Shown piece after piece: positions 29,203 to 56,889 of a stretch of DNA of 64,000 nt (position 1 is its first letter; each line of letters opens with the position of its first letter). A program made the position numbers and the translations under genes. Where the stretch lies: NCBI GenBank assembly GCA_964502145.1, contig CAZCVI010000002.1, forward strand, positions 117,383 to 181,382, read 5' to 3'. The notes under the pieces were generated by a model that ran no database searches, was not told the DNA's origin, and saw only the letters and a program-made list of their open reading frames with translations. The DNA comes from an uncultured Clostridia bacterium (lineage in GTDB: Bacteria; Acidobacteriota; Aminicenantia; UBA2199).

Positions 29203-29203
29203 T

Positions 29204-29257
29204 GGGAGGAATGGGAAGTATGGGAATTATGGGAGTTATGGGAAGAATGGGATATTT
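29204..29257 (+). repeat. Six tandem 9-bp repeats (taatgggag gaatgggaa gtatgggaa ttatgggag ttatgggaa gaatgggat) directly after the stop of the upstream gene
   Basis: Read directly. The reverse complement of the unit is the same nonamer found inside the NRPS A domains. Confidence 0.85.
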
Positions 29258-37430: not shown

Positions 37431-37510
37431 TAGAACTGTCTATCTTTTTGTAGAATTATCTATCTTTTTGTAGAATTTTCCTGTTTTTCGTAGAATTTTT
37501 TGGTTTTAGA
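37431..37510 (+). repeat. Four tandem 20-bp imperfect direct repeats (TAGAAYTRTCTATCTTTTTG)
   Basis: tagaactgtctatctttttg / tagaattatctatctttttg / tagaattttcctgtttttcg / tagaattttttggttttaga. Confidence 0.8.
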
Positions 37511-37540
37511 GACAAATTTCTAATTTCAGTTACAATTTTT

Positions 37541-37690
37541 TAATAATTTTTAAAAAATTGCGGTTACAGGGACAATTTTTTAAAAATTCCTTGAAAATTG
37601 TAGTGGTGCGGAGAAAATTGTAGCCATGGGGACTTTTTTTTAAATATTTTTGAAAACATGCACCTACAGGTCCAATTTTGTAGGCAGGGA
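37541..37690 (+). promoter_or_regulatory. AT-rich iteron-like array (recurring ACAATTTTTTAAAAA and AAAATTGTAG motifs) upstream of the NRPS operon
   Basis: Multiple short direct and inverted repeats read directly. The region lies between divergent genes. Confidence 0.4.
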
Positions 37691-37780
37691 GTTTGTAGGC
37701 AGTGTTTACATATTTGGATGGCTATTGTAGATGCGACATCTTGTCGCATTGATAAAGGCATAAAGCAAAATAGATACGGT

Positions 37781-37812
37781 CCACTTAGTCCATATCGTCC
37801 ACATCGTCCACA
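37781..37812 (-). repeat. About four tandem 9-bp repeats GTCCAYWTM (reverse complement GATRTGGAC), related to the 31308 array
   Basis: gtccactta gtccatatc gtccacatc gtccacaac. Confidence 0.7.
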
Positions 37813-41000: not shown

Positions 41001-44000
41001 ATTGCAAACGATATGGACGAGCGTTTTATTTGGAAACGTGCTTTCAGAAGATTCATCCGCACCACCACCTAAACCCATCGGGATTGATGATAATTTCTTT
41101 CATATGGGCGGACACTCCCTGAAGATCATGAATATGGCAGCTAAAATTCACAAGGAGTTGAACCTGGAAATACCAGTGCAAGAACTATTCACCCATCCCA
41201 CTATCCGGGTTTTGGCCAATTATATAAACACGCGGGAACACACTAAAAATATCACTAAAAATAACTTTGCAGAGATCGCCGCTATTGAAGTAAAAGAATA
41301 CTATCCACTCTCTTCGGCCCAGAAAAGAGTTTATATTTTATACCTCATGGAAACCGATAGCATCAATTACAACATGCACGAGGTATTCCGCCTGGAAGGG
41401 GAACTGGACGTGGGCCGCTTGGAAAAAAGCTTTACCCAATTGATTCGCAGACACGAAAGCTTAAGAACTTCCTTTTTCTTACTCCATGATGAACCGGTCC
41501 AGAAGATTGTGGCCGCCAGTGATGTACCATTCGCCAGCGAATTTTTTGATCCAAACGAAAAAGACACCCTGGTCGAACCTGCCCTAAACGACACCGCGTT
41601 AATGGAAAATACCACTGTTTATGACATCAACCAGCGTTTTTTAAGACCCTTTGATTTGACTCAAGCGCCCCTGTTCCGCGTCGGGCTTATTAAAATCGCC
41701 AAGAACAGCCATATCTTGATGGCAGGAATGCACCATATTATTTCCGATGGCATATCAATTGACCTATTTATCACTGATTTTGTCGCCCTCTACCGTGGCC
41801 AGAACTTACCCCCCTTGCCCATTCAATACAAAGAGTATGCCCACTGGCAGCACCAGAAAAAAGCGCAGGGCGCCTTTAATAGCCAACGCTCCTACTGGTT
41901 GCATGAATTTGCCGGTGAGCTTCCCGTATTAACCATGCCCTATGATTTCCCCAGGCCAGCCGTGCAGAGTTTTGCCGGCGACAAATATTATTTTAACCTC
42001 CCCGCATACGAAACCAAAACGTTAATAAAACGGTGCCAGGAAGAAGCGGTGACTCTTTTTATGATGCTCAGCGCTATCTATTATGTGATGCTGTGGAAAC
42101 TGAGCGGTGCCGAAGAGATCGTGGTGGGAAGCCCCACGGCTGGACGCAGACACGCTGATCTGGAATCCATTTTAGGAATGTTTGTCAACACCCTGGCAGT
42201 AAAAACCAGCCCTGCCAAGGAAACACGCTTCAAACCCTTTTTGGCACAAGTCAAACAAAAGAACCTGGCAGCTTTTGAAAACCAGGAGTACCAATTTGAT
42301 GATCTGGTGGAGGAACTATTACCCGCACGGGATTTAGGTCGCAACCCGTTATTCGACATGATGTTCATCTTGCAAAATATGACCGGCACAACTAACACGG
42401 CGATAAATATTCCGGGCTTAAAAATAACCCGCCTTCCTTTTGAAACGCATATCGCGCCTTTTGATTTTTACCTCATGGCTGAAGAACGACAGGAGTCTAT
42501 CTATTTTACCGTGGGTTATTGCACCAAATTGTTTACGCTGGAAACCGTGCGTCGGTTCATGGGGTATTACCGAGAAATTCTGGCCACAGTGGTCACCCAA
42601 CCCGAGGTGGAACTGGCACGTATAGACATATTATCCCCGGCAGAGAAACGCCAATTAGTGCAGGAATTTAATAATACCCAACGACCGTACCCACAGGGTC
42701 AAACCATTCCGCAATGGTTTGCAGAGCAGGCCGCACGAACCCCAGAAGCCATTGCCGTGGTAGGGGAGGGGGTCATCACCTATCGGGAATTAAATCAACG
42801 GGCCAATCAATTGGCCCACCTGTTGCGACAAAAAGGAGTGGCCCCAGATACCATTGTTGCCCTCTTTATGTTTCGTTCTATCCAGATGGTTGTTGGTATC
42901 CTCGGCATATTAAAAGCGGGCGGCGCTTATTTGCCGATCAACCCCGTGTATCCTGGGCAACGTGTGTTGTCTATCCTGGAAGATAGCGGTGGCAATTATT
43001 TTATAAGCGATGAAAAAACATCCCGCCCTCTTTCTTTTACCGGTTTACAGCGTTTGGATGTGCCCGAAGTGACGCCCCTGGTTACAGCCAAACGACCCCA
43101 GATCACAAATTTTGATAGCTTGCCCCATCCCGATCGTACATTGATTGATTACAGCAAATATCATCGTTATATTGGTATTGCACCCGCCAAATACACCGTC
43201 AGTATCCAGGCCACTCGCGGCTGCCCGTATCAATGTGCCTACTGCCATAAAATATGGCCCAAAACACATGTCATGCGGCGGGCTGAAGATATATTCGCCG
43301 AGATTAGCGCCTGCTATCAGGCGGGGGTGAAACGATTTGTATTTATCGACGATGTCTTCAACCTCAATAAAAAGAACAGCGGCCAATTATTTCAAACCCT
43401 GATCGACCACCACTATGATGTGCAGCTCTTTTTTCCCAACGGGTTACGCGGCGATATCCTGACCCCCGATTTTATTGACCTCATGATTGAAGCAGGCACT
43501 GTTAATATTGATCTGGCCCTGGAAACGGCCTCGCCCCGCTTGCAGAAACTGATCAATAAACAATTGAACCTGGAAAAATTCGCGGCCAACGTCCATTATA
43601 TCACCCAGAAACATCCCCATGTCGTGTTGGAGATGGAGATGATGATTGGCTTTCCCACGGAAACGGAAGCGGAAGCTTTACAAACCCTGGAATTATTGCA
43701 GAGTTTTAAATGGGTCCATTTCCCCAACCTGAATATCCTCAAAATTTATCCCAATACTGACATGGCCCAACTGGCAATTGAAAACGGGGTCAGTCGTAAA
43801 TTGATTCATTCCTCCACCACCCTTGCATTCCATGAGTTGCCAGAAACACTCCCTTTTTCAAAAGATTTTGTCCGGGAGTATCAGGCACGCTTTACCAACC
43901 AGTATTTTCTTTCCCAGGAACGGTTGCGCCATGTATTAAAACAGCAGGTCAAGAGCTTCACCGCCGATGAGCTCGTGCAAAAGTACGACAGTTATTTACC

Positions 44001-47000
44001 CGTGGAGATCAAGTCTTTTGCCGATATTCTCAAGTGTGCTGACATCTCCAGCGCTGCATTGGGGCCCATTGAATTTATTCCCGAAGCCCGCTTTGCCGCT
44101 CCCGATTTTAACCAGCGGATCAAGGCTTTTTTCCCCTCCCGCCCCAGCTCGGAAAATGCTTTTCGTCTCTTGTTTCTTGACCTGTCGCAATCCTTTCGCG
44201 CCGATATGGGCCATACCCTTTACGATGTCGGAGCCGAACCCTTGGGGTTGATGTATCTCGCCTCCTATCTCCAAGAACAACTCGGCCCACACGTTCGGGT
44301 CAAAGTGTTGAAGTCGCGCATTGATTTTGATAGTTATGCCCAATTGCAAGAACAGATCACGTTGTTCCAGCCCCATTTAATTGGTCTGCGCACCCTATCC
44401 TTGTACAAGGATTTTTTTCATCGCACTGTTTCCCTGTTGCGGCAATGGGGCATTACCGCGCCTATTATTGCTGGTGGACCCTATGCCACCAGCGATTACA
44501 AACAAATGCTCCAGGACCCACACATCCATCTCGCCGTGCTGGGAGAAGGAGAAGCCACTACCCTCCATCTGGTTAAAGAGATGATGACCAAAAACAATAC
44601 CTGGCCCGCCGACGACGTATTGGAAACCATTCCCGGTCTCGCCTTTATTCGCCAATCAGAGCGAATGTTAACCACCGCCCCCCAGCGGCAGGTGCTCTTG
44701 TTGGACCAGATTTCTGGTCCATTGGCCCACTTTCCCACCACCAATCCCCAGAACGTCAATCACCCCGGTGATTTGCTATATTTGATCTCCACTTCCGGGT
44801 CTACCGGGAAACCCAAGAGCGTGATGGTCGAGCATCGCACCCTGGTTAATTTGCTGCATTTTCAATTCCATCATACAGCCATCCATTTTTCCCGTGTCTT
44901 GCAATTTGCCGCCATCGGGTTTGATGTCTCCGTGCAAGAGATTTTTTCTGCCTTACTCGCCGGTGGCACTTTATATCTTCCTGACGAAGATATGAAAAGC
45001 GATGTGCCCCGGTTGTTCCAGTTTATCCAGCAGAACCAGATCGAAATTCTGTTTCTGCCTCCTGCATTTTTGAATTTTGTTTTTTCTGACCCCGACTATA
45101 TCCCATTATTTCCCGACTGTGTGCGCCATATTATAGCTGCTGGCGAACAATTGATCGTGAACGAGGCGTTACGATTGTTCCTGAAGCAGCGGCACGTGTA
45201 TCTCCATAATCATTATGGCCCCTCTGAGACCCATGTTGTCACCACCTTGACCATGGATCCCACCCAGGAAATCCCCCATTTCCCCGGTATTGGCAGCCCC
45301 GTATCCAACACCGGCATTTATATCTTGGATAGCCAAAGCAATCTTTTGCCCCTGGGTGTTAGCGGCGAATTAAACATTGGCGGTATCCAGGTCGGGCGTG
45401 GTTATTTGGGTAATGTGGCGTTGACTGCCGAGAAGTTTGTGCCGAATCCCTTTGTCCCCGGTGATCGCTTGTATCGCACCGGTGATATGGCCCGATGGTG
45501 GTCAAATGGGAGTATTCAGTTCTTGGGACGCTTGGATTTCCAGATCAAAATCAGGGGTTTTCGTATTGAACCCGGTGAAATCGAGGGACAATTAAAAAAA
45601 CACCCGGATATTAAAGAAACAATTGTCCTGGCTCTGGCAGATAATAAGGGCGAGCTCTATCTGGTGGCTTATGTAGTGTTACAGCCGCAGACTACCATGC
45701 CCCTCTTACGGGAATTTTTATTGAACCGATTGCCGGATTATATGGTTCCCGCCCATTTTATCCCTCTGGCACGAATTCCCTTGAACGCCAGCGGGAAAGT
45801 CGACCGTCATGCGTTACCACCACCGGAAAATACACCGGGAAACGGGCATGTAGCACCACGGGACCCCATGGAAAAAAAATTGGCCGCTATCTGGTGTACC
45901 GTGTTGGGGAAAGATGTTGCCCAAGATACAGTCAGTATTGATGATAATTTTTTTCAAATGGGTGGGCACTCCTTAAAAGCCACCGCCCTCACCTCCAGGC
46001 TAGCCAAAGAGTTTCATGTTAAAGTGCCCCTCGTGGAGATTTTTAAAGAGCCCACCATCCGGGGCCTTTCCGGTTATATTGCCCATTCTATGGTGGAGCA
46101 ATACGCTGGCATAACTCCTGTAGAAGAGCAGGAATACTACCCCTTATCGTCAGCGCAGAAACGATTGCACTTTTTACAACAAATGGATAAAGCGGGAACC
46201 ACCTATCATCTGACTAGTAACTGGCTGTTGGAAGGTGTTGTCGCTAAAAACCACCTGGAACAATCGCTGCTAAAACTGCTACAACGCCATGAGAGTTTAC
46301 GCACTTCCTTTGATATCATAGCCGAAGAACCCGTGCAAATCATCCACCCGAAATTAGCATTTGTTATTGAAGATGAACATGCTACCATGGATTCTTTCCT
46401 GCGTCCATTTGCATTATCACATGCCCCGTTGCTGCGCGTCGGATTGGTAAAAATAGCAGCCGAAAAGTTTCTCTTACTCGTGGATATGCATCATATTATT
46501 TCCGATGGGTTGTCCATGGATATTCTGAGCCGTGAATTCACCGCTCTTTTGGCAGGCGTAGAACTCCCCCCATTACGTCTCCAATACAAGGATTATGCCG
46601 CGTGGCAGAGTTCTGAAAAAGAGAGCCCCCACTTCCGTCAACAAGAATTATTTTGGCAGCAAGAGTTTAGCGGCGCCATACCCGTGCTCGATTTGCCCGT
46701 TGATTATAGCAGACCACCCGTTCAAAGTTTCGCCGGGGCATCACTTCCTTTTGCCCTATCTCGTGATAGCGTTGTTTCCTTGCAAGCCATAGCAGTAGAA
46801 GCCAGTGCCACAATGTACATGGTGCTGCTCACATGTTATACTATCTTTTTAGCTAAAATGAGCAACCAGGAAGATATTGTCATTGGCACACCCATTGCCG
46901 GTCGCAGGCATGCAGACCTGGAGAAAATTATCGGGATGTTTGTCAACACATTGGTGTTGCGGAACTATCCGGTAGCGGAGAAAAAATTCAGCGATTTCCT

Positions 47001-50000
47001 GGCTGAGGTCAAAGAGAGAACATTAAAAGCATTTGAAAACCAGGAGTACCCGTATGAAGATTTGGTAGACAAAGTCACGATCACCCGTGACGTCTGTCGC
47101 AATCCCTTATTTGATACCATGTTTGTATTGCAAAATGCCACCCCACCACCCGTGGACATTCCCGGCTTAAAAATAGCGCCCGTGCCGCAGGAAAACAAAA
47201 CCGCCAAATTTGATCTGACTCTAACAGCAGTGGAAACCCCGGAAAAAATAGAATTGAACTTCGAGTACTGTACTAAATTATTTAAAAAGGAATCCATCCA
47301 CCGGTTTATCACCTATTTTACCAATATCATCGACTCCGTTCTGGCAGACCCCTTCATTGTCTTGGGTCAGATTCCCCTGCTCTCCCCAGCACAACGAGAG
47401 CAACTGCTGGTGGAGATCAACGCACCCGCCATCCGCTATCCTAATTTCAAGACCATTCAGGGTTTATTCGCCGAGCAGGTCAAAAAAACGCCGGATCGGC
47501 CAGCACTAACCGGTATCAGGTATGATCAAGCAGAAACTCACCTGACTTACCGGCAATTGGACCAGCTTTCCCGACAGTTGGCCCACCAGTTAACGGGTAG
47601 GGGATTGGGTCCTAACAAGCGAGCAGCCATAATGGTAGGCCGAAACGTGGAAATGATTATTGCCATTCTTGGAATTATTCAGGCCGGGGCCGCGTATGTT
47701 CCCTTGGACCCCCAGGCCCCTGTCGAACGATTGCACTATGTATTGGCTGATTGTGGCGCAGAATTATTATTAACCTTCCGCCCATTGGCTGCACGATTGG
47801 CTCCCGCCATAGATACACTTTACCTGGAAGAGTTTACCACCCTCCCTGCCACCCCTCCCGATGCCGTTCTCTCCGGTCATCCTGATGATCTCGCCTATAT
47901 TATATATACATCCGGCTCAACCGGTAGGCCCAAAGGTGTTCCTATTTGCCACCGCAATGTATCGCCCTTATTGTTTTGGGGGTATCGGTACTTAGGGATT
48001 TGTCGTCTAGATCGTGTTATCCAGAGTCCCTCCTATTATTTCGACTGGTCTGTCTGGGAGATATTTATTACCCTTACCAGCGGGGCCCATTTGGTAATGA
48101 TTAGCGAGGAGCTTGTACTTGATCCCCCGGCGTTGGTGGAATTTATCCGGCAGCACGCCATTACCACCCTGCACATCACCCCCACCCAGTTAAGTTATCT
48201 CGTGAATAGCAGACGCCCTATGCTCTCGTTGCACCATCTCTGTATTGGCGCCGAGAAATTAACCTATGATCTTGTAGCCCGTGCTCTTCCCCTGCTTGCA
48301 ACCGATTGCCGGATTTACAATATGTACGGTCCCACCGAAGCCACCATCATTTCCGCTGTGGCCGAGATTGACCGTGAGCAAATTCCGTTCTATCTCAAAC
48401 TGCCCAGTATCCCTATTGGTCACACCATCGCCAATACCACCCTGTTCGTATTGGATCATTCTATGAACCCCTGTCCCATCCATGTTGTTGGTGAACTGTA
48501 CATTGCCGGGGATGCCTTGGCCCGTGGTTATCTCAATGATCCAGAAAAGACCGTAGCCAGTTTCGTCACCAATCCCTTTGCCGAGATTTGCGGTCCCTAC
48601 CTCTACAAAACCGGTGATCGCGTTCGTCGCCTGGAGGATGGCAGCATTCTCTTTTTAGGTCGCGCCGATGATCAGGTAAAAATACGCGGCTATCGCATCG
48701 AGTTGGGGGAAATTGAGAACTGGCTGCTACACTATCCACACGTCAAAGATGCTCTCGTGCTGGTCAAAGCGGATCATCTACAGGAGAAATATTTATGTGC
48801 CTATGTGGCGTGTCCCATTGAATTGGATACCGCCGAATTAAGGGATTTCCTCGCCGCCAGACTTCCCGCCTATATGATCCCCGCCCATTTTATCACGCTT
48901 GAACATATGCCCCTCAACCCCAATGGCAAAGTCGATAAAAAACGCCTGCCCCTCCCTGAAATGCAAACAAGCCCACAAGTCGTCGCCCCCAAAAACGATC
49001 TGGAAAAAACCATCCTCTCTATCTGGCAAGACGTACTTGGACTCGACCACGTAGGCACCACGGATAATTATTTTGAACGGGGTGGCAATTCCATGAATAT
49101 CGTTAAAGTCAGTCACCGTTTAAAAAGTGTATTGAACCGCGATATCCCCGTGATGGACCTGTTCCGTTACCCCACCATCAAAACCCTGGCCGCTTACCTC
49201 AACCAGAGCCCCGGCCATGTCCCTTTCACCCCGTCGGAGATAGGGGAGTCCCTCCTACTTAATCAACCCGAAATACCCCGACATGAGAGTGTTTCTACCA
49301 CTCCCGCGATTGCCGTGATTGGTATGGCCGGAAGGTTGCCCGGTGCGAACACTATTTCCGCATTCTGGAACAATCTCAAGCATGGTGTCGAATCCATTGC
49401 TTTTTTCTCCCCCGCAGAATTCGCAGACAACGGGGGTGATCCCCGGTCCGTGAACCTGCCCAATTATGTTAAAACCCGCTGTGACTTGCAAGATATCCAG
49501 TATTTTGACAGTTCATTTTTTGGGTACACCCCCGTGGAAGCCGAAATAATAGACCCCCAGATGCGCCTATTTCATGAATGTGTCTGGGAAGCTTTTGAAG
49601 ATGCCGGTTATGAGTCCGGTTCTTATGCCGGTCGTATCGGGCTTTATTCCGGTGGGGAATCCAGTTCTTTCTGGGAAACATTAACCTCTTTATCCCAGAT
49701 TGGTCAGTTGATGAATCCCTTGATTCTGGGCAATTTAAATAATAAAGATTACCTCAGTTCCCGTATTGCCTATAAATTTAATTTACGCGGGCCATCCGTC
49801 ACCATGAACACCGCTTGTTCCACCTCACTTGTCGCCATTCATTTTGCTGTTCAGGGTTTGCTCAACCGCGAGTGTGAGATCGCCCTGGCCGGTGGCGTGC
49901 GGGTCATGCTGCCCGGAAAAACCGGCTATCTCTATCAAGAGGGTATGATTCAATCCCCAGATGGTCATTGCCGTGCCTTTGATGCCAGGGCCAATGGCAC

Positions 50001-53000
50001 CGTGGGTGGCGATGGCGTCGGTGTTGTAGTCTTAAAAACTCTGGCACGGGCCCAGGTGGATGGCGATCATATTTATGCTGTCATCAAAGGTTCTGCCATT
50101 AATAATGATGGTATTGGCAAAGTAGGTTACCATGCCCCCAGCATCAATGGTCAGGCTGCCGCCATTCGCGCCGCGTGTGCCAATGCTGCCATTGATCCCG
50201 GTAGTATCGGTTATATTGAAACCCATGGGACCGGCACCCAGTTGGGGGACACCGTGGAGATAGAGGCATTAAAACTCGTTTTTAACGCCCTCGTCTTGCC
50301 CCAGCATAAAAATACCTGCGCTATCGGGTCAGTCAAAACCAATTTTGGTCACCTGGGCAGTGCCGCCGGGGTGGCTGGATTCATTAAGACCGTATTGACC
50401 TTAAAACACCGCCTCATTCCACCCAGCTTGCACTTTGAACGCCCCAACCCGAAGATTGATTTTGAAAACAGCCCCTTTTACGTCAACACCCAATTAACCC
50501 CGTGGCCCTCCACCCTTCTTCCCGCGCGGGCCAGTGTCAGTTCCTTTGGCATAGGCGGCACCAACGCCCATATTATTTTGGAAGCCGTGGCCCCTACCAG
50601 CCCCGCATTCCCCGCCAGCGCCCGTCCCGATCAATTGCTATTATTATCCGCCCGCACCCCCGCTGCCCTGCACACCATGTCCGTCAATCTGCTGGAGTAT
50701 TTAAAAGAAAACCCGGTGCTTTCCCTGGCCGATGTGGCCTACACCTTGCAAGTGGGCAGAAAGCGTATGGCAATCAGGAGAAAGCTGGTATGTTCCACTT
50801 CCGCCCAGGTGATTGACCAGCTTGCTGCTTCCGGGCCCGCCCATGTCGGCGCTTACACCGCCTTGGTCGCCGATGAAGATAGGAAAGTTATATTTATGTT
50901 CCCTGGTCTTGGTGCGCAGCACGTTAATATGGGGCGCGGGCTTTATCACACCGAACCCATCTTCCGCGATGTGATGGACCGTTGTTTTGCTATATTAAAA
51001 GACCTGTACCCCGTGGACATAAAAGAAATTCTGTACCCTGCCGGGGAAATCTCGCCGGCATCAAACAGCCAATTCCACTCCTTTGAAGTCGAGCAACTCG
51101 TGTTGTTTGTGTTTGAATATGCCTTGGCCAGACTCATTTTGTCGTGGGGCATTCAGCCCCATGCCATGATCGGTTACAGTTTTGGCGAGTATGTGGCCGC
51201 CTGTTTAGCCGGGGTGTTTCGCTTGCAGGATATCTTAAAGTTGCTGGTCGTCCGTGGGCGGCTCATTTCCCAGCTTCCCGCCGGTGCCATGTTAAGTGTT
51301 CCCCTGCCAGTGGAAGCCGTGCAGCCTTTTCTTCCCGCCGAATTATCCATCGCCATAGACAACCGTTCCTCCTGCGTAGTTTCCGGGCCCGCCCAGGCCG
51401 TGGCTTCCTTTGCTCAGCAGATGAAAGCCAAGAAGCTCTTGTGTCCGCCCTTTGAATCCCCCTTTGCCGCGCATTCGTCGCAGTTGGACCCCATATTGGC
51501 GGAGTTTCACAAGGAAGTCGCTACAATTTCCCTCCAGACCCCGCAAATACCCTATATTTCAACCTGTACTGGCACATGGATCACTGTTGCCGACGCGCAG
51601 TCCCCAGAGTATTGGGTCAAACAACTCAGGTCCACCGTTTATTTTGTCCGCGGTATTCATCAGATTATAGAAGGGGTCTCCCCGGTATTTCTAGAAATGG
51701 GCCCCGGACGCGACATGAGTGCCCTGGTGAACCGTGAGATCACCGCTAAAACCGGCATACAGACCATGAACCTCCTCCGTCATCGCGGTTCCTTAAAAGA
51801 GCGCACCGATGAAGATTACTTGCTGGATAAAATCGGTCGCTTATGGTTGTATGGCGTGAATATAGACTGGCAAGCCTATCATTCCGGCCAGAGACGAAGT
51901 CGTCTCTCATTGCCTACCTATCCCTTTGAGAAAAAGCGGGCCTGGAAAATTATGGAAAATTATCACGCCGGTCAATATTCCTATCTACCCGGCGCCCCCG
52001 GTGCGCCAGAGAGTTCGCACCCGGCCCAAGGAACACCTCTGGCAGAAACACCGGGTGATCATTGGACACAAGAGCCCCCCCATCTCGAATGGAATGCTAG
52101 GCCGCAACTTTCCACCTCATATGTCGCTCCCCGCGATGAGGTGCAACAAGTCCTGCTTGATATCTGGCAGCATTTTTTTGGTATTCAAGAGATCGGTATC
52201 ACCGATGATTTTTTTGAATTGGGTGGCGATTCATTAAAAGCCACCACCCTGTTATCCACCCTGCACAAGGAAGCCAATATACTCGTCCCCCTCACTTATT
52301 TCTTCGATAATCCTACCATTGAAAAAATCGCCGCTTATGCCATAACCAGTGAAAATGACGCAGACCCAGGCGAAAAAGAGTTCCATGCCATCCAACTTTT
52401 GGAACAGAAAGAGTATTACCCCCTCTCTTCCGCGCAAAAGCGCATGACCTTTTTTCAGCAGTTGGACCAGACCAGTATCGGATACAACCTGGTGCTGGCA
52501 AACACCATCCAGGGCAATCTGGATACCCTAAAACTGGCCGCCATATTCACCAAACTAAGCGCACGGCACGAGATTTTGCGTACCTCTATTGAAGAGATAC
52601 AGGGTGAAACCGTCCAAAGAATTCATCCACATATTGCTGCCACACTGATCACCGGTCATGGAGAGTCCCCCGAAGTATTTATCGCCCAGTTCATCCGTCC
52701 CTTTGATTTAGCCCGTGCCCCCCTCATGCGGGTCGGGTTGTTGTCTATGGCCGAGCAGCAGTATTTATTAATCGTCGACATGCATCATATCATCTCTGAT
52801 GGCACGTCATTGGCCGTATTGATCGGAGAGTTTTTGGCTCTGTATCAGGAAAAAGAGTTGCCTGTTCTGTTGTTGCAGTATAAAGATTACGCTGTCTGGC
52901 AGAACCAGGAAATGGCCGGTGGGTTGTTTGTTTCGCAGCGGGATTACTGGATAAAGACATTTGCCGGTGAAGTTCCCGTGCTTGAATTGCCTTATGATTG

Positions 53001-56000
53001 TATCAGGCCGTTGGATCGCACCTATGCTGGCGATCTGTTGGCCTTTGAAATTGATCGTGCAGAGACTTCGGCGTTAAATCATTTCGCCAGTCAGCAGGGG
53101 GTCACATTGTACATGGTGTTGCTCTGCTTAACCACTATCCTTTTAGCCAAGTTAAGTGGTCAGGAAACCGTGGTCGTAGGAACTCCCATTGCCGGTCGTA
53201 CCCATGCGGACCTGGGCCGGATTATCGGCATGTTTGTCAATACCCTGGCCATGAAGAATGAACCCAATGGCCAAAAAACTATCCAGGAATTTTTAAAGGA
53301 AGTCAAAGAAAACACCTTGAGTGCTTTTGCCAACCAGAACTACCAGTATGAAGAACTGGTCGAGCACCTGCCCATAGATCGCAGTCTAGGCCATAACCCC
53401 TTGTTTGACACCCTGTTGGTCTTGCAAAACATGGCTCTGCCCAATATCAATATTCCCGAATTGACCTTAACACCCTATCCGTATCATACCGGTTTGGTAA
53501 ATTTTGATTTGACTTTCCTGTGTGTTGAAACCCCAGCTACCCTCTCGTTCACCCTTGAATACAGTACAGAACTCTTTAAAAAAGAAACCGCCCAACGCTT
53601 TATCGGTTTTTTCAAAAAGATATTAACCACCGTATTGGCGCACCCCGAAGGAAAAATATCCCAGATCGAGATAATATCCCAGCCAGAAAAAACCCAGATT
53701 TTATATGATTTCAACAACACCACCGTTACATACCCGGCCAACCAAACCCTTCCCCAATTATTTTCCGACCAAGCCGCACGAACCCCAGACCATATCGCCA
53801 TTATTGGTCCCACCCTGGCTCTAACCCACTGCCAATTAACCTACTCCCAATTAAACGAAGCATCCAATCGCCTCGCCCATTGGTTACTTTCCACTGGCGT
53901 CCGTCCCAATACCATCGTCGCCATCATGATCGAACGTTCCATTGAATTGATCATCGGCATTATCGGCATATTAGAATCCGGTGCCGCCTATCTTCCCATC
54001 GATCCCCAATACCCCGAGGAGCGAAAACAATATATACTAGCAGACAGCAATACAACCCTCATCCTAACCCAACACTCCATCCAACAAGCCATTCCCATCA
54101 CTCCCATCACTCCCAACACTCCCATAATTCCCATACTTCCCATCACTCCCATAAATCTCGCCTATATCATCTACACTTCCGGTTCCACCGGCAGACCCAA
54201 GGGCGTCATGGTAGACCATCACAGCATCGCCAACACCTTGTATTACCGCTGCCAGGAATATCGTATCGTGCCCAGTGATCGTGTACTCCAATTGTTTTCC
54301 TTTGCTTTTGATGGATTTCTCACCTCTTGTTTTACCCCCCTGCTTTCTGGCGCATCTGTCGTGCAGTTAAGCCAGGAGGACATAAAAGATATCTTCCGTA
54401 TCAAAGAGATGATTGTCGCCCAACGAATCACCCACTTTATCGCTGTCCCGTCCCTGTACCGCTCTTTATTGGAAGTCGCCACTGCCCTTGAGTTATCCCA
54501 CCTAAAAATCGTAACCCTTGCCGGTGAGCAGGTGCCCCCCGACCTCGTGGTAAAAAGTAAGTCTTTAAACCCCTTGTTGGAATTGGTCAATGAGTACGGT
54601 CCCACCGAGAGCAGTGTCCTGACCTCCATACACAGAAACCTCGAACCCGGTGCCATTATTTCCATCGGTAAACCCATAGCCAATACCCGGATTTATATTC
54701 TTGATCAAGATGATCATGTTGCCCCCATCGGGTTACCCGGTCAACTCGTTATATCTGGTCTTGGTTTGGCCCGCGGGTATCTCAATAATCCCCAACTCAC
54801 CGCCGCTACATTTTTCTCTTTAGCCCATTCAGCCACCTTCGCCACCCTCTCACCAAAACTCTATAAGAGCGGTGATTTGGCCCGCTGGTTGCCAGATGGA
54901 AACATAGAGTTCCTCGGTCGCATTGATCAGCAGGTTAAAATCCGTGGCTTCCGTATTGAATTGGGCGAGATCGAAAACCAACTGCTTCGCCATCCCCAGA
55001 TCAAAGAGGCAGTAGTGGATGTTAGAACCGAAAACAGCGGCGATCACTATTTATGCGCTTATATTGTCACCCAGGGCGAATGGGACATCTCCCAGGCAAG
55101 AGAATATCTGGCCAAGACCTTACCCGATTACATGATTCCCGCGCATTTTGTCGCCTTGGAGAAAATCCCCTTGTCCCCCACTGGCAAGATTCTACGTTCA
55201 GCCTTACCCCAACCGCAATTAAAAAGCGCGGCCCAGTACGTGCCCCCCCGCAATGACATAGAACAACAATTGGTAGAGATATGGACCGAGATTTTGGGCA
55301 GTGATCCATTGTTTGCCTCTTTTTTACATCCCTCTATAGGCATTGATGATAACTTTTTCCATCTCGGTGGGCACTCCTTAAAAGCCATGACCATGGTCAC
55401 CAAGCTCCATAAAGCCCTAAATGTTAAAGTGCCCTTGGTGGAAGTCTTTAAAACCTTGACCATCAGGAAACTGGCCGCCTATATTTTAGGTTTAAAAAAA
55501 GAGTTATACACCGCCATCCAACCCGCTGAAACCAGAGAGTATTATGACTTATCCTCTGCCCAGCGCCGGTTTTATATCTTGCAGCAAATGGAGCTGGACA
55601 GTTTTGCCTACAACAATTTTTCCGTCATGGTTTTGGACGGATTATTTGATAAAGAGAAATTTGGCCACGCGTTAAACCAATTGATCGCCAGACATGACAG
55701 TTTAAGAACCTCTTTTGAATTAATCGGAGGTGAACCTTTCCAAAAGATACATCAACAAGTAGTCGCGGAAATCGCTTATTTTGATTTCACCCCTCCCGGA
55801 AAAAGTCAGCTCTTAGAATCCACCATCCAACATTTTAACCGTCCTTTTGATTTATCTCATGCCCCCTTGCTCAGGTTCGGCATTATTCTCGTGGAGCAGC
55901 AAAAATCCTTGTTGCTGTTAAGCCTCCACCATATCATCAGTGACGGCACATCCATCGGCACCTTTATGAACGAGTTAATTTATTTATACCTGGGCCGAGA

Positions 56001-56889
56001 ACTCCCACCCCTGCGATTGCAATATCACGATTTCTCCCAGTGGCAAAAAAACCTCCTGGTTTCCGGGGCATTAAAGACCCAGGAAGAATACTGGTTAAAA
56101 GTTTTTGCCGGGGAACTGCCCGTTCTTGAAATGCCCACCGATTACCCCAGACCAGCCGTGCAAAGTTTTGCCGGTCACAGTATCGATTTCTTTCTGGAGG
56201 AAGATGTCGCCCGGCAGTTGGAAACCCTGGTGAAAGAAACTGGCACCACGTTATATATTTTGTTATTGGCCCTGTACAGTATCTTGTTAAGCAAATTTAC
56301 CGGGCAGAAAGACATCATCATCGGCTCTCCTATTGCCGGGCGCAACCACGCTGATTTAGAAGGGCTGATCGGGTTATTCATTGAGACCATCGTGATCCGC
56401 TGTTTTCCCCTCGGAGATAAACCCTTTTTGGAATTCTTGGCAGAGGTGAAAAGCAATACCTTTAATGCCTATGAGAACCAGGGTTATCCCTTCGGGGAAT
56501 TATTAAAGCACGTGGGCACCCAGCAGTGGGATGGCAGTCGGAACCCCTTGTTTGATGCCATGTTAATTGTTCAGAATGTCACCCAGGATTTTAAAGTGAT
56601 GTTATTGGAAGATGTAAAGATCAGCCCTTATGTGGCCAGTGACCACCGGGTCTCTAAAATGGATATTACCCTGGAGGTCATCGAAGCCCCCGGCAGAATT
56701 CATTGTAACCTGGAATACTGTACCGCGCTATTCACACACGAGACCATGGCAGCCTTTATCGCTTCTTTTCAGAAAATCGTGGCCATTGTTTTAGAAAATA
56801 ATAACATAAGATTGCAAGACATCCAATTGTCCCATGAATTAAAAGGTGCCACCGCCTCTATTTACGATGACGCCGAAATAGAGTTTTAA
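38071..56889 (+). CDS. Hybrid NRPS/PKS megasynthase (6272 aa): C1-A1-T1-C2-A2(interrupted by rSAM+B12-binding insert)-T2-C3-A3-T3-KS-AT-T4-C4-A4-T5-C5(terminal)
   Basis: C-domain HHxxxDG motifs at about 41731, 46487, 52783 and 55927 (HHIIYDG in C1). A-domain A3 motifs YTSGTTGKPKG and TSGSTG(K/R)PKG are present. T-domain motifs are GGHSLK, GGNSMN and GGDSLK. KS motifs are NTACSTSL, HGTGT and NFGHLG. AT motifs are FPGLGAQ and GYSFGEY. Confidence 0.95.
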   Translation: MSQLERKKIADILMLTHLQEGILFHYLQEPKSAQYFEQLSLEISGEINLELFKTAWHTVIQTNEMLRTVFRWEKMEKPTQIILKEHTCDITFYDLTDEATNRQKSRLQEIKDKDKQTPFDLQEVPMRIMLCKLGTHDYEMIISNHHIIYDGWSNGIILKEFFRAYYGLSAGKPALLPDKPSFKEFIKWLQNEDKYEKDKQKAFWRDYLAGLDGQTELPLKNIKNRKNTGSKQVEHYSLVLEPELKERLEAFAKTKRFTLAGVFYTVWGLLLHQYCNSQDVLFGTTVAGRSARIKGIEEMVGLFINTIPLRIQTTPGEKMVAVVSGVDHALQARELFENTPLLDIRNYSGLSGYVSLFDTLVVIENYPLDSRLLPEESGLSVHAFTIAEMTHYDLTVGIVLFNEIAVTFSYNPELFAQEMIAHLAGHFLSLVQMIIENGEQDICAIEIISPEEKHRVLYEFNNTAAEYPSNKTIPQLFMEQSARTPDYIALIWEKSGACHISYAELNELSNRLAYWLQTEGIRPDTIVAIMVNRSIEMIVGLMGILKAGAAYLPINPEYPAERIQFMLQDSTAKIVLTEPIIQATTSHIPIPPIIPIIPIPPITPSNLAYVIYTSGTTGKPKGVLVEHQNAVNVVCWLGRKYQLNPDTHIILMSDYTFDASIDQIFGALLHGASLYIASKEFMLDMDALRHYINKNRINFINFVPLVLNELLGYREKLPSLNTVISGAERLDDTIKDNILKRGYHLYNHYGPTETTVETLVFTCTDAPVYLGKPIANTKIYILDQWEHIVPIGVPGELYIAGAGLARGYLNRSDLTAEKFVATPHGVENDPVSRTYRTGDLGCWLPDGNIAFLGRIDQQVKIRGFRVELGEIEAQLRTFPEIKQVVVSAKEDNRGDKTLCAYIVSRQLSTGPTAPLDPAVLTTYLAGILPDYMIPAYYVQLAEIPLLPNGKVDRKNLPEPVFIATQAYQEPRHELDRRLQTIWTSVLFGNVLSEDSSAPPPKPIGIDDNFFHMGGHSLKIMNMAAKIHKELNLEIPVQELFTHPTIRVLANYINTREHTKNITKNNFAEIAAIEVKEYYPLSSAQKRVYILYLMETDSINYNMHEVFRLEGELDVGRLEKSFTQLIRRHESLRTSFFLLHDEPVQKIVAASDVPFASEFFDPNEKDTLVEPALNDTALMENTTVYDINQRFLRPFDLTQAPLFRVGLIKIAKNSHILMAGMHHIISDGISIDLFITDFVALYRGQNLPPLPIQYKEYAHWQHQKKAQGAFNSQRSYWLHEFAGELPVLTMPYDFPRPAVQSFAGDKYYFNLPAYETKTLIKRCQEEAVTLFMMLSAIYYVMLWKLSGAEEIVVGSPTAGRRHADLESILGMFVNTLAVKTSPAKETRFKPFLAQVKQKNLAAFENQEYQFDDLVEELLPARDLGRNPLFDMMFILQNMTGTTNTAINIPGLKITRLPFETHIAPFDFYLMAEERQESIYFTVGYCTKLFTLETVRRFMGYYREILATVVTQPEVELARIDILSPAEKRQLVQEFNNTQRPYPQGQTIPQWFAEQAARTPEAIAVVGEGVITYRELNQRANQLAHLLRQKGVAPDTIVALFMFRSIQMVVGILGILKAGGAYLPINPVYPGQRVLSILEDSGGNYFISDEKTSRPLSFTGLQRLDVPEVTPLVTAKRPQITNFDSLPHPDRTLIDYSKYHRYIGIAPAKYTVSIQATRGCPYQCAYCHKIWPKTHVMRRAEDIFAEISACYQAGVKRFVFIDDVFNLNKKNSGQLFQTLIDHHYDVQLFFPNGLRGDILTPDFIDLMIEAGTVNIDLALETASPRLQKLINKQLNLEKFAANVHYITQKHPHVVLEMEMMIGFPTETEAEALQTLELLQSFKWVHFPNLNILKIYPNTDMAQLAIENGVSRKLIHSSTTLAFHELPETLPFSKDFVREYQARFTNQYFLSQERLRHVLKQQVKSFTADELVQKYDSYLPVEIKSFADILKCADISSAALGPIEFIPEARFAAPDFNQRIKAFFPSRPSSENAFRLLFLDLSQSFRADMGHTLYDVGAEPLGLMYLASYLQEQLGPHVRVKVLKSRIDFDSYAQLQEQITLFQPHLIGLRTLSLYKDFFHRTVSLLRQWGITAPIIAGGPYATSDYKQMLQDPHIHLAVLGEGEATTLHLVKEMMTKNNTWPADDVLETIPGLAFIRQSERMLTTAPQRQVLLLDQISGPLAHFPTTNPQNVNHPGDLLYLISTSGSTGKPKSVMVEHRTLVNLLHFQFHHTAIHFSRVLQFAAIGFDVSVQEIFSALLAGGTLYLPDEDMKSDVPRLFQFIQQNQIEILFLPPAFLNFVFSDPDYIPLFPDCVRHIIAAGEQLIVNEALRLFLKQRHVYLHNHYGPSETHVVTTLTMDPTQEIPHFPGIGSPVSNTGIYILDSQSNLLPLGVSGELNIGGIQVGRGYLGNVALTAEKFVPNPFVPGDRLYRTGDMARWWSNGSIQFLGRLDFQIKIRGFRIEPGEIEGQLKKHPDIKETIVLALADNKGELYLVAYVVLQPQTTMPLLREFLLNRLPDYMVPAHFIPLARIPLNASGKVDRHALPPPENTPGNGHVAPRDPMEKKLAAIWCTVLGKDVAQDTVSIDDNFFQMGGHSLKATALTSRLAKEFHVKVPLVEIFKEPTIRGLSGYIAHSMVEQYAGITPVEEQEYYPLSSAQKRLHFLQQMDKAGTTYHLTSNWLLEGVVAKNHLEQSLLKLLQRHESLRTSFDIIAEEPVQIIHPKLAFVIEDEHATMDSFLRPFALSHAPLLRVGLVKIAAEKFLLLVDMHHIISDGLSMDILSREFTALLAGVELPPLRLQYKDYAAWQSSEKESPHFRQQELFWQQEFSGAIPVLDLPVDYSRPPVQSFAGASLPFALSRDSVVSLQAIAVEASATMYMVLLTCYTIFLAKMSNQEDIVIGTPIAGRRHADLEKIIGMFVNTLVLRNYPVAEKKFSDFLAEVKERTLKAFENQEYPYEDLVDKVTITRDVCRNPLFDTMFVLQNATPPPVDIPGLKIAPVPQENKTAKFDLTLTAVETPEKIELNFEYCTKLFKKESIHRFITYFTNIIDSVLADPFIVLGQIPLLSPAQREQLLVEINAPAIRYPNFKTIQGLFAEQVKKTPDRPALTGIRYDQAETHLTYRQLDQLSRQLAHQLTGRGLGPNKRAAIMVGRNVEMIIAILGIIQAGAAYVPLDPQAPVERLHYVLADCGAELLLTFRPLAARLAPAIDTLYLEEFTTLPATPPDAVLSGHPDDLAYIIYTSGSTGRPKGVPICHRNVSPLLFWGYRYLGICRLDRVIQSPSYYFDWSVWEIFITLTSGAHLVMISEELVLDPPALVEFIRQHAITTLHITPTQLSYLVNSRRPMLSLHHLCIGAEKLTYDLVARALPLLATDCRIYNMYGPTEATIISAVAEIDREQIPFYLKLPSIPIGHTIANTTLFVLDHSMNPCPIHVVGELYIAGDALARGYLNDPEKTVASFVTNPFAEICGPYLYKTGDRVRRLEDGSILFLGRADDQVKIRGYRIELGEIENWLLHYPHVKDALVLVKADHLQEKYLCAYVACPIELDTAELRDFLAARLPAYMIPAHFITLEHMPLNPNGKVDKKRLPLPEMQTSPQVVAPKNDLEKTILSIWQDVLGLDHVGTTDNYFERGGNSMNIVKVSHRLKSVLNRDIPVMDLFRYPTIKTLAAYLNQSPGHVPFTPSEIGESLLLNQPEIPRHESVSTTPAIAVIGMAGRLPGANTISAFWNNLKHGVESIAFFSPAEFADNGGDPRSVNLPNYVKTRCDLQDIQYFDSSFFGYTPVEAEIIDPQMRLFHECVWEAFEDAGYESGSYAGRIGLYSGGESSSFWETLTSLSQIGQLMNPLILGNLNNKDYLSSRIAYKFNLRGPSVTMNTACSTSLVAIHFAVQGLLNRECEIALAGGVRVMLPGKTGYLYQEGMIQSPDGHCRAFDARANGTVGGDGVGVVVLKTLARAQVDGDHIYAVIKGSAINNDGIGKVGYHAPSINGQAAAIRAACANAAIDPGSIGYIETHGTGTQLGDTVEIEALKLVFNALVLPQHKNTCAIGSVKTNFGHLGSAAGVAGFIKTVLTLKHRLIPPSLHFERPNPKIDFENSPFYVNTQLTPWPSTLLPARASVSSFGIGGTNAHIILEAVAPTSPAFPASARPDQLLLLSARTPAALHTMSVNLLEYLKENPVLSLADVAYTLQVGRKRMAIRRKLVCSTSAQVIDQLAASGPAHVGAYTALVADEDRKVIFMFPGLGAQHVNMGRGLYHTEPIFRDVMDRCFAILKDLYPVDIKEILYPAGEISPASNSQFHSFEVEQLVLFVFEYALARLILSWGIQPHAMIGYSFGEYVAACLAGVFRLQDILKLLVVRGRLISQLPAGAMLSVPLPVEAVQPFLPAELSIAIDNRSSCVVSGPAQAVASFAQQMKAKKLLCPPFESPFAAHSSQLDPILAEFHKEVATISLQTPQIPYISTCTGTWITVADAQSPEYWVKQLRSTVYFVRGIHQIIEGVSPVFLEMGPGRDMSALVNREITAKTGIQTMNLLRHRGSLKERTDEDYLLDKIGRLWLYGVNIDWQAYHSGQRRSRLSLPTYPFEKKRAWKIMENYHAGQYSYLPGAPGAPESSHPAQGTPLAETPGDHWTQEPPHLEWNARPQLSTSYVAPRDEVQQVLLDIWQHFFGIQEIGITDDFFELGGDSLKATTLLSTLHKEANILVPLTYFFDNPTIEKIAAYAITSENDADPGEKEFHAIQLLEQKEYYPLSSAQKRMTFFQQLDQTSIGYNLVLANTIQGNLDTLKLAAIFTKLSARHEILRTSIEEIQGETVQRIHPHIAATLITGHGESPEVFIAQFIRPFDLARAPLMRVGLLSMAEQQYLLIVDMHHIISDGTSLAVLIGEFLALYQEKELPVLLLQYKDYAVWQNQEMAGGLFVSQRDYWIKTFAGEVPVLELPYDCIRPLDRTYAGDLLAFEIDRAETSALNHFASQQGVTLYMVLLCLTTILLAKLSGQETVVVGTPIAGRTHADLGRIIGMFVNTLAMKNEPNGQKTIQEFLKEVKENTLSAFANQNYQYEELVEHLPIDRSLGHNPLFDTLLVLQNMALPNINIPELTLTPYPYHTGLVNFDLTFLCVETPATLSFTLEYSTELFKKETAQRFIGFFKKILTTVLAHPEGKISQIEIISQPEKTQILYDFNNTTVTYPANQTLPQLFSDQAARTPDHIAIIGPTLALTHCQLTYSQLNEASNRLAHWLLSTGVRPNTIVAIMIERSIELIIGIIGILESGAAYLPIDPQYPEERKQYILADSNTTLILTQHSIQQAIPITPITPNTPIIPILPITPINLAYIIYTSGSTGRPKGVMVDHHSIANTLYYRCQEYRIVPSDRVLQLFSFAFDGFLTSCFTPLLSGASVVQLSQEDIKDIFRIKEMIVAQRITHFIAVPSLYRSLLEVATALELSHLKIVTLAGEQVPPDLVVKSKSLNPLLELVNEYGPTESSVLTSIHRNLEPGAIISIGKPIANTRIYILDQDDHVAPIGLPGQLVISGLGLARGYLNNPQLTAATFFSLAHSATFATLSPKLYKSGDLARWLPDGNIEFLGRIDQQVKIRGFRIELGEIENQLLRHPQIKEAVVDVRTENSGDHYLCAYIVTQGEWDISQAREYLAKTLPDYMIPAHFVALEKIPLSPTGKILRSALPQPQLKSAAQYVPPRNDIEQQLVEIWTEILGSDPLFASFLHPSIGIDDNFFHLGGHSLKAMTMVTKLHKALNVKVPLVEVFKTLTIRKLAAYILGLKKELYTAIQPAETREYYDLSSAQRRFYILQQMELDSFAYNNFSVMVLDGLFDKEKFGHALNQLIARHDSLRTSFELIGGEPFQKIHQQVVAEIAYFDFTPPGKSQLLESTIQHFNRPFDLSHAPLLRFGIILVEQQKSLLLLSLHHIISDGTSIGTFMNELIYLYLGRELPPLRLQYHDFSQWQKNLLVSGALKTQEEYWLKVFAGELPVLEMPTDYPRPAVQSFAGHSIDFFLEEDVARQLETLVKETGTTLYILLLALYSILLSKFTGQKDIIIGSPIAGRNHADLEGLIGLFIETIVIRCFPLGDKPFLEFLAEVKSNTFNAYENQGYPFGELLKHVGTQQWDGSRNPLFDAMLIVQNVTQDFKVMLLEDVKISPYVASDHRVSKMDITLEVIEAPGRIHCNLEYCTALFTHETMAAFIASFQKIVAIVLENNNIRLQDIQLSHELKGATASIYDDAEIEF
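39823..39885 (-). repeat. Seven in-frame copies of the NNTCCCATN nonamer (reverse complement WATGGGARN) inside A1 between core motifs A2 and A3, encoding TSHIPIPPIIPIIPIPPITPS
   Basis: Read directly. The unit is identical to the intergenic array at 29204-29257 in opposite orientation. Confidence 0.85.
42990..44760 (+). other. About 590-aa insert in adenylation domain A2, between core motifs A2 and A3: radical SAM core (ATRGCPYQCAYC) followed by a cobalamin-binding-like Rossmann domain (IIAGGPYAT...VLGEGE)
   Basis: A2 motif LKAGGAYLPINP at ~42.93 kb and A3 motif LISTSGSTGKPK at ~44.79 kb. The Cys triad codons are at 43222-43245. The LPHPDRTLIDYSKY linker is typical of B12-rSAM enzymes. GEGE at 44542-44553. 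Confidence 0.75.
49290..52260 (+). other. Embedded PKS module KS-AT-T (no KR/DH/ER) within the NRPS; the AT has non-canonical GYSFGEY and FAAHS motifs
   Basis: KS has TPAIAVIGMAGRLPG, NTACSTSL, HGTGTQLGD and NFGHLGSAAG. AT has FMFPGLGAQ and GYSFGEY (51172-51192). Carrier domain has FFELGGDSLK. Confidence 0.8.
54091..54153 (-). repeat. Seven in-frame copies of the NNTCCCATN nonamer inside A4 between core motifs A2 and A3, encoding IPITPITPNTPIIPILPITPI
   Basis: Read directly. Same repeat family as 39823-39885 and 29204-29257. Confidence 0.85.

Follow-up and report, generated by a model that had tools for sequence, protein, structure and literature searches.

We found that one connection inside an adenylation (A) domain of a giant nonribosomal peptide synthetase (NRPS) is built from a short tandem repeat. 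The domain is A4, the fourth A domain of a synthetase encoded in a 64,000-nucleotide stretch of contig CAZCVI010000002.1 from an uncultured bacterium (hereafter, the window), and the repeat is an array of seven nonamers between core motifs a2 and a3. We propose that this array is a degenerate, in-frame nonamer microsatellite that is tolerated at a permissive site, where it serves as a passive, repeat-derived spacer. We give this reading a probability of roughly 0.6.

The seven head-to-tail units at 54091-54153 of the plus strand read attcccatc, actcccatc, actcccaac, actcccata, attcccata, cttcccatc and actcccata, exactly as the initial annotation had written them; the sequence, Tandem Repeats Finder (TRF) and translation agree on this. 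They stand in frame 0 of the open reading frame (ORF) at 38071-56889 and are translated as IPITPITPNTPIIPILPITPI (residues 5341-5361), in which proline is kept in seven of seven units and isoleucine in six of seven. The array lies between core a2 (LESGAAYLPID, nucleotide 53971) and core a3 (LAYIIYTSGSTG, nucleotide 54157) of the fourth AMP-binding domain. TRF placed it at 54093-54152, with a period of 9, 6.7 copies, 83% matches and a score of 83. The pattern (TCCCA N4)x3 TCCCA has 10 overlapping matches in the window, every one of them within three arrays (29203-29252 on the minus strand, 39834-39883 and 54093-54151), whereas 100 dinucleotide-preserving shuffles contained none (expected 0, observed 10). 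By TRF and shuffles alike, these are short head-to-tail units beyond chance, and the A4 array is confirmed as real and non-random. The C-rich tract around it (Table 1) contains the longest G-free run of the window (71 nt), and almost no RNA structure was predicted for it (minimum free energy -2.3 kcal/mol). A search of the whole window against Rfam gave a tRNA as the only match at the gathering threshold and none for the array.

Table 1. Positions of the A4 array, its host gene and related features in the window (C, condensation; T, thiolation; KS, ketosynthase; AT, acyltransferase; PKS, polyketide synthase; SAM, S-adenosylmethionine; aa, amino acids).
Feature	Position	Strand	Basis
Host gene, 6272-aa NRPS/PKS, C-A1-T-C-A2(radical SAM + B12 insert)-T-C-A3-T-KS-AT-T-C-A4-T-C	38071..56889	+	ORF, Pfam
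A4 domain as modelled, 490 aa, canonical ANL fold; array = model residues 120-141	53734..55203	+	Pfam, AlphaFold2, Foldseek
A4 core a2, LESGAAYLPID (aa 5301)	53971..54003	+	translation
C-rich (46% C), almost G-free (2% G) tract, 113 nt, surrounding the A4 array	54048..54160	+	base composition
A4 nonamer array, 7 units NYTCCCAWN encoding IPITPITPNTPIIPILPITPI (aa 5341-5361)	54091..54153	+	sequence, TRF, translation, shuffles
A4 core a3, LAYIIYTSGSTGRPKG (aa 5363)	54157..54204	+	translation
A1 sister array, same alignment columns, HIPIPPIIPIIPIPPITPS	39826..39889	+	TRF, translation, alignment
Third array of the same family, outside the NRPS gene (reads ATGGGANNN on the plus strand)	29202..29252	-	TRF, sequence

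By profile, motif and fold, A4 is an NRPS adenylation domain of the ANL superfamily. It matches Pfam PF00501 and PF13193 (AMP-binding and AMP-binding_C), and its translation contains LESGAAYLPID, LAYIIYTSGSTGRPKG, NEYGPTE, YKSGD, GRIDQQVKIRGFRIELGEIE, LPDYMIP and PTGKILR; core motifs a2, a3 and a5-a10 are present and the nearly invariant columns are retained. With an alignment of 99 sequences as input, AlphaFold2 gave a model of A4 whose mean predicted local distance difference test score (pLDDT) is 93.1. In Foldseek this model showed the canonical two-subdomain fold, with template modelling scores of 0.88-0.90 to the LgrA thiolation state (5es8) and to EntF (5t3d).

The array does not lengthen the domain. 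When the count starts just past the a2 motif and stops just short of L-A-Y, A1 and A4 each have 51 aa between a2 and a3, versus 60 aa in A3 and a median of 61 aa for 85 homologous segments found in the 120 best database homologues of A4. Thus, the earlier description of the array as an insertion does not hold in the sense of added length. In the A4 model the array (residues 120-141) is an unbroken coil of 22 residues, preceded by a strand (109-111) and a helix (113-119) and followed by the a3 strand (142-147). In the control, a model of A3 of this NRPS with a mean pLDDT of 93.2, the corresponding stretch folds as a strand (125-128), a short helix (129-134) and then a loop that leads to the a3 strand. 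LgrA aligns across the array region with about 10 more residues than A4. Because the a2-a3 segment is shorter and the A3 model has a strand and a helix in the same stretch, we read the array as a replacement and not an addition. As modelled, the array encodes a proline-rich coil that replaces a strand-helix-loop element; the segment is shortened and the rest of the fold is canonical. The array is also the region of lowest confidence in the domain (pLDDT averages 61 in block 121-130 and 83 in block 131-140). Structure modelling had been suggested as a way of confirming that the repeat maps to a surface loop. The coil was indeed found, and its placement on the solvent side appears probable from the coil state, the low pLDDT and the literature.

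The position of the array is a familiar one. Natural interruptions of A domains occur at a2-a3, a6-a7 and a8-a9 (PMC8341866, PMC11355689), and the A4 array, between a2 (aa 5301) and a3 (aa 5363), occupies the first of these sites. Interrupted A domains hold an embedded catalytic domain, typically of 260-350 aa; the array contributes 21 repeat residues and no Pfam domain. The initial annotation was right that the A4 array shares its structural position with an array in A1 and with a radical SAM insert in A2, both of which are also real by TRF, Pfam and translation. It had called this recurrence at one loop striking. We find it less so, as a2-a3 is a documented permissive site (PMC8341866, PMC11355689) and the repeat family also occurs outside A domains.

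Several features of the nonamers suggest that the repeat family is maintained at the level of DNA. None of the 20 units in the three arrays departs from T-C-C-C-A at positions 3-7, and 18 of them have T at position 8, whereas positions 1, 2 and 9 are variable; this common TCCCA core bears out the claim that the A4 and A1 arrays are of one family. The invariant T is a synonymous third codon position in the NRPS frame, and threonine is encoded by ACT in four of four codons of the A4 array versus 15.5% elsewhere in the ORF. The third array starts where a radical SAM/SPASM gene (27814-29202) has its stop codon; read on the plus strand, its units are AATGGGAAG-like and correspond to the NRPS units in reverse complement. 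When this array is reverse complemented, it and the A4 array have an identical block of 26 nt (ACTCCCATAATTCCCATACTTCCCAT); the longest block common to the A4 and A1 arrays is only 17 nt. Because the core is invariant even at a synonymous T and because 26 nt are common to an opposite-strand array outside the NRPS gene, we see here signs of a family kept at the DNA level, and not of convergent selection for a peptide. In the 64 kb of genome seen, the arrays at 29202, 39826 and 54091 occupy several unlinked loci, coding and non-coding, in both orientations, as members of a dispersed family do. The ACT and third-position-T signal appears to be better evidence of a DNA-level origin than the bias towards CCC. 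As sole proof of such an origin the CCC codon bias was rejected, CCC being already 59% of the proline codons of the ORF.

Other repeats lie between the genes of the window. Period-9 arrays with a related core, GTCCAYATN, are found at 31307-31345, just after a methyltransferase gene, and at 37779-37812, about 260 nt upstream of the NRPS start. An AT-rich region upstream of the NRPS gene (37427-37700) contains direct repeats of about 20 nt (TTTGTAGAATTTTCTATCTT x3.7, with further GTAG/ACAGG-containing copies), which may be regulatory sites. At 29202-29303 on the plus strand, an ATG overlaps the stop codon of the radical SAM/SPASM gene (TAATG) and opens a 33-aa ORF, MGGMGSMGIMGVMGRMGYLELFLKTLNFIKISL, that is present in the gene calls of three assemblies. 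This call may be spurious, or the ORF may encode a repeat peptide that is coupled to the radical SAM enzyme.

The A1 array allows us to ask how the A4 array arose. It lies between the same cores, a2 and a3, and aligns with the A4 array column for column, with no gap; the two arrays are read in the same frame and both exit via N-L-A-Y. Each has 7 units and 21 residues, the first A1 unit being offset by one base. No two of the four A domains are closer to each other than A1 and A4 (49.5% protein identity, versus 37-44% for other pairs), and the DNA flanking their arrays is about 63-72% identical; these values uphold the earlier view that the two did not arise by a recent module duplication. Before a3, A1 is the nearest sequence to A4, with 57% amino acid identity ahead of the array and 59% within it, and in the array region no sequence other than A1 exceeds 25% identity to A4. 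Just after core a3, about 10-20 codons downstream of the array, this likeness breaks off. Over A4 residues 150-300 the identity to A1 drops to 13-38%, with database fragments (P0001, P0002 and P0035) reaching 47-83%, and the C-terminal part of A4 is A1-like again. Such a mosaic has been described for A-core exchange in NRPS evolution (PMC8097286). From these alignments the mosaic could reflect A-core exchange or, alternatively, merely a different substrate specificity. Because the break in identity lies downstream of the array, after a3, the array itself is not demonstrably a recombination junction.

The content of the two arrays differs. TRF describes the A1 array as starting at 39825 with a 27-nt unit in 2.4 copies (92% matches), and it contains two Pro-Pro pairs; A1 thus carries a 27-nt duplication, and A4 the 26 nt in common with the array at 29202-29252. 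We consider that one inherited site, with later turnover of the array, fits better than two independent insertions (about threefold in likelihood), because A1 and A4 share the N-terminal block, the unit count, the columns, the frame and the N-L-A-Y exit. It may also be that the arrays are equally long because the distance that they have to span is constrained.

A4 is not alone in having repeats at this site. The best homologues of A4 are fragments from Candidatus Deferrimicrobium, Aminicenantes and Kapabacteria. Short a2-a3 segments (41-55 aa) were found in 15 of the 85 homologous segments, and several of those inspected look low-complexity or repetitive. A repeat origin was confirmed in DNA at three loci, L120, L121 and L122 (Aminicenantes CP070627.1). 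The a2-a3 segment is made of TTCATCA x4.6 in L120, where the heptamer is read in all three frames as FIIHHSS; of a 39-mer x2 and TCCCCAAAT x3.2 (PQIPQIPQI) in L121; and of GGTGAGTGA x5.9 (EVSEVSEVN) in L122. In two A domains of L122, GTCCYATAN-type nonamers also lie in frame between a6 and a7 (900-930 and 4220-4250; IHTSYRSHTSY and IHMSYMSYRSY), and an AAATCAC heptamer array is present near the N-terminus. Repeats are thus seen on two of the three known interruption sites: at a2-a3, and at a6-a7 in the one Aminicenantes locus read. Judged from these sequences, the nearest homologues of A4 commonly have an a2-a3 segment filled with repeats, and nonamers at a6-a7 are present in one relative as well. 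Compared with A4, the homologues from Ca. Deferrimicrobium (GCA_035299165.1) and Aminicenantes (CP070627.1) belong to the same A-domain clade, and their a2-a3 segments are likewise shortened (41-55 aa) and derived from tandem repeats. They differ in their units (TTCATCA, TCCCCAAAT, GGTGAGTGA and the 39-mer), none of which has a TCCCAT core at a2-a3, and their heptamers could shift the reading frame whereas the A4 nonamers cannot. In the literature searched (nonamer repeats, Aminicenantes tandem repeats) we found no description of repeat-filled A-domain segments.

A gene beside the cluster also points to Aminicenantes. It encodes an S46 peptidase with 58-66% identical homologues that are named Aminicenantes at NCBI, and this sequence likeness makes Candidatus Aminicenantes a probable relative of the host organism. 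In the 65-66% identical relatives, the neighbourhood of this peptidase shows partial synteny, with no NRPS beside the peptidase. Related Aminicenantes loci contain many short repeat arrays, mostly heptamers and several of them between genes, and one repeat cluster stands at a position homologous to the window array at 31307. The TTCATCA unit (FIIHHSS or IHHS) recurs just before a3 (L120 311-342, L121 747-843 and L122 3402-3454; proteins P0031, P0047, P0070 and P0073), in fragments of A domains that are assigned to Deferrimicrobium, Aminicenantes and Kapabacteria. A coding heptamer array shifts the frame unless the change in copy number is a multiple of three, and could switch a synthetase on or off.

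Beyond the window, the TCCCAT core is not demonstrably special. We scanned one genome per species for four consecutive TCCCAT-N3 units, a pattern that itself forces the core, and found more than 113 loci in many phyla, including Verrucomicrobiota, Planctomycetota, Acidobacteriota, Lentisphaerota, Hydrogenedentota and Bacteroidales. The arrays have 4-15 units and sometimes occur as inverted pairs. About 96 of 131 arrays in these loci have no long spanning ORF, and several of the apparently coding ones lie just upstream of a start codon; extra period-9 arrays in the same loci are mostly variants of the same core. In viral contigs, TCCCAT occurs at 118 loci, versus 101 for the permuted core CTCCAT and at least 120 for TCACCT, so that TCCCAT is not over-represented there relative to permuted cores. 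We therefore do not claim a special cross-phylum TCCCAT family. Among JGI metagenome contigs, no case was found of three TCCCAT units within 14-44 nt of the a3 core (TAYACNWSNGG...).

The genome loci held some further features. Some TCCCAT arrays are inverted back to back and would form long hairpins (L007 429-466/471-508, L019 and L054), and 58 heptamer arrays of diverse sequence were seen in L007-L119, several as inverted pairs (L009, L029, L063, L096, L100 and L108). Long open frames with Ser-His-x repeats run through some of the TCCCAT arrays of L022, L025, L054, L092 and L106. These frames resemble the His-Xaa-Ser repeat effectors of an antiphage system matured by radical SAM enzymes (PMC13128918). 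A link between such arrays and radical SAM maturases was looked for with phmmer: the radical SAM/SPASM protein of the window gave no match among all ORFs of 113 genome loci, and no homologue of this enzyme was present in the five Ser-His-x loci.

We have proposed a model that addresses how the array came to its site and what keeps it there. A genomic short repeat would have come to occupy the solvent-side a2-a3 connection of A4, where it would form a proline-rich, extended (x-Pro-Ile)7 coil in place of the canonical beta-strand, short helix and loop, leaving the segment 9-10 residues shorter than normal. The site would tolerate the array because a2-a3 is structurally permissive, being among the sites of natural methyltransferase domain insertion, and the 9-nt unit would be unable to shift the reading frame. 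Occupancy in A1 and A4 would have been inherited along with their common N-terminal A-domain block. Slippage, together with exchange between arrays of the TCCCAT family, would continually renew the content of the repeat, and the fixed distance that has to be spanned would hold the total length at 7 units and 51 aa between a2 and a3. Selection would keep only this length and a non-disruptive, extended, proline-rich character. The likely role is thus that of a passive spacer, neutral or nearly so, to which we assign no catalytic or regulatory function. The data show directly how the array is built, that it is a member of this family, that it takes the place of secondary structure in the models and that other repeats recur at this site in relatives; the history of the two arrays, the constraint on their length and the absence of a function we infer.

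The initial annotation favoured a different history, that of an independent insertion or expansion of one repeat family. In such a scenario the family would have seeded the a2-a3 loops of A1 and A4 separately, this being the sole tolerant place. The 26-nt block that brings the A4 DNA closer to the array at 29202-29252 than to A1 (17 nt), the separate 27-nt duplication history of A1, and the many different repeats at a2-a3 in relatives, which make it clear that seeding has happened repeatedly, are all what this history predicts. It has to treat as coincidence that A1 and A4 share columns, unit number, frame and N-L-A-Y exit, that A1 is nearest to A4 throughout the block before a3, and that both lack the canonical strand and helix and have a segment shortened to the same 51 aa. 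We regard two separate insertions or expansions as the less likely history, at rather long but not extreme odds. It is also possible, though improbable in our view, that the peptide itself was selected, with (x-Pro-Ile)7 aiding the folding or assembly of the 6272-aa enzyme as a rigid polyproline-II spacer, a docking surface or a signal for translational pausing. Pro-Pro pairs slow translation, and A1 has two of them; proline in seven of seven and isoleucine in six of seven A4 units, and a tract of 21 residues in A1 and A4 alike, although the repeats inside the two have different histories, would suit such a role. Selection on the peptide is hard to square with synonymous positions that are as strongly conserved as coding ones, with units on the other strand outside the NRPS gene, with homologues that fill the site with the unrelated FIIHHSS, EVSEVN and PQIPQI, and with the lowest model confidence of the domain falling on the array.

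Still less probable is a nucleic-acid element within the coding sequence: a Rho-loading (rut-like) site, a 9-bp periodic protein-binding array or a portable homology patch for module recombination. The 113-nt tract, with 46% C, 2% G, the longest G-free run and a minimum free energy of only -2.3 kcal/mol, resembles a Rho-loading site, and an invariant core with variable spacers is what a binding array would have. A homology patch could account for A1/A4 similarity that ends about 10-20 codons past the array, after which A4 is like other A domains, as in A-core swapping (PMC8097286). The array at 29202-29252, however, is oriented opposite to its flanking genes, so that the arrays have no common reading as RNA, and the identity break falls at or after core a3 and not in the array. 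The core is also not demonstrably special, given its permuted counterparts in viral contigs; the array has no Rfam match, and nothing ties it to termination. An assembly or sequencing artefact in a repetitive stretch can be discounted almost completely. Short repeats are prone to mis-assembly, and the A4 array itself was not recovered in an independently fetched contig; when metagenomes were scanned for an exact match to the 24 nt on its left side, no contig was hit, and the source contig was missed as well. However, the window matches metagenome contigs of JGI 3300020048 and ENA ERZ27262927, and two independent assemblies, from ENA and JGI, encode an NRPS of 6259 aa, the length of the window ORF when it starts at Met14. 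The sister arrays, in A1 and at 29202-29252, are identical in three independent metagenome assemblies, and a 63-nt array is far shorter than a sequencing read. We exclude an artefact because the frame is open for 6272 codons and the gene lengths are identical in two independent assemblies.

Some observations weigh against the passive microsatellite that we prefer. That the A1 and A4 arrays are equally long could be due to convergence, with length under constraint, and not to shared ancestry. A conserved core beside variable flanks could mean selection on DNA or RNA and not the youth of the repeat, and the CCC bias alone is weak, with 59% of proline codons elsewhere in the ORF being CCC. No copy-number polymorphism was seen in the available assemblies, which probably sample one population, and it is by inference that we speak of ongoing slippage. 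The surface exposure of the array is judged from coil state, low pLDDT and the literature and not from computed accessibility. So far, a TCCCAT array next to an a3 core is known only from this organism.

The reading that we prefer is for the most part an ordinary one: a short tandem repeat of the genome appears to be tolerated in a loop already known to be permissive, and it does not look like a new functional module. Cyanobacterial short tandemly repeated repetitive (STRR) heptamers and variable number tandem repeat (VNTR) or contingency loci are likewise short head-to-tail units at many loci, mostly intergenic and occasionally in genes, and their presumed origin is slipped-strand mispairing. 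The A4 array differs from them in that its 9-nt unit never shifts the frame, it is degenerate (83% matches), no variation in copy number was seen and the host is Aminicenantes-like. It is not a cyanobacterial STRR, which is a heptanucleotide in a cyanobacterial genome: its unit has nine nucleotides, and the best named homologues of a neighbouring gene are from Ca. Aminicenantes. Proline-rich extended linkers are known from the Pro-Thr boxes of cellulases, the X-Pro repeats of TonB and the Ala/Pro linkers of 2-oxo acid dehydrogenase E2. Like these, the A4 tract has proline at every third residue, with threonine or isoleucine, and is predicted to be a non-helical, extended, flexible or rigid spacer; they join separate domains, whereas the A4 tract replaces secondary structure inside one globular domain. 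The interrupted A domains TioN and MarQ (families 3, 4 and 7; PMC8341866) resemble A4 in that the same a2-a3 place is used and the surrounding domain is intact, and the neighbouring A2 of our NRPS carries a true domain insertion there. Unlike them, A4 has no auxiliary catalytic domain, only 21 low-complexity residues, and a segment of 51 aa compared with about 60, not one that is 260-270 aa longer.

The insertion in A2 is of interest in its own right. About 610 aa (window 42943-44781, aa 1625-2237) interrupt A2 between a2 and a3, with a Radical_SAM domain (aa 1713-1876) followed by a B12-binding domain (aa 2056-2166), the reverse of the usual order of B12 and then radical SAM. NCBIfam models gave sub-threshold similarity to BchE, ApyD and PhpK-type B12 radical SAM enzymes. 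Because the 2020 catalogue of interrupted A domains makes no mention of radical SAM, B12 or cobalamin (PMC8341866), A2 may be a new type of interrupted A domain; a literature search on A domains interrupted by radical SAM domains found nothing relevant. A second megasynthase ORF follows directly after the first (56892-64000, plus strand), runs for 2369 codons without a stop and leaves the end of the window; tblastn found KS-AT-like, carrier and condensation-like regions in it. A supposedly ORF-free region of 7 kb downstream of the NRPS gene was rejected, since this open-ended ORF was simply missing from the ORF list. Elsewhere in the window (12079-16215), a radical SAM protein of 614 aa adjoins a YcaO cyclodehydratase of 754 aa with an N-terminal winged helix, and this pair is followed at 17061-22337 by a 1758-aa Ser/Thr kinase-AAA_16-GAF-SpoIIE protein.

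We believe that three observations are worth keeping: secondary structure appears to be replaced rather than a loop added, the repeat is common to opposite-strand DNA outside the NRPS gene, and a2-a3 segments filled with repeats occur in homologues. A bolder idea, which we rate as doubtful, is that repeats of 7 or 9 nt systematically colonise the A-domain connections that accept methyltransferase domains, and that in this genome TCCCAT arrays are exchangeable DNA patches, common to modules and to DNA outside the NRPS gene, that mark or promote module rearrangement, or else C-rich Rho-loading or protein-binding arrays that are translated all the same. Its basis is a2-a3 in several homologues and a6-a7 in one Aminicenantes locus, all in uncultivated sediment lineages (Aminicenantes, Deferrimicrobium and Kapabacteria). 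If repeats did serve recombination or the control of transcription, the dynamics of repeats would be linked to the evolution of natural-product assembly lines, although nothing here demonstrates such a role. For NRPS engineering, A1 and A4 offer a natural experiment in which, as modelled for A4, the strand-helix-loop at a2-a3 has been swapped for a repeat coil of about 22 residues in two modules of an apparently intact megasynthase. The unrelated repeats at a2-a3 in relatives, and at a6-a7 in one locus, map the tolerance of these loops onto the sites of domain insertion. For genome biology, the array would be a case in which a repeat family of an uncultivated lineage has passed from non-coding DNA into the core of an enzyme with the reading frame unbroken.

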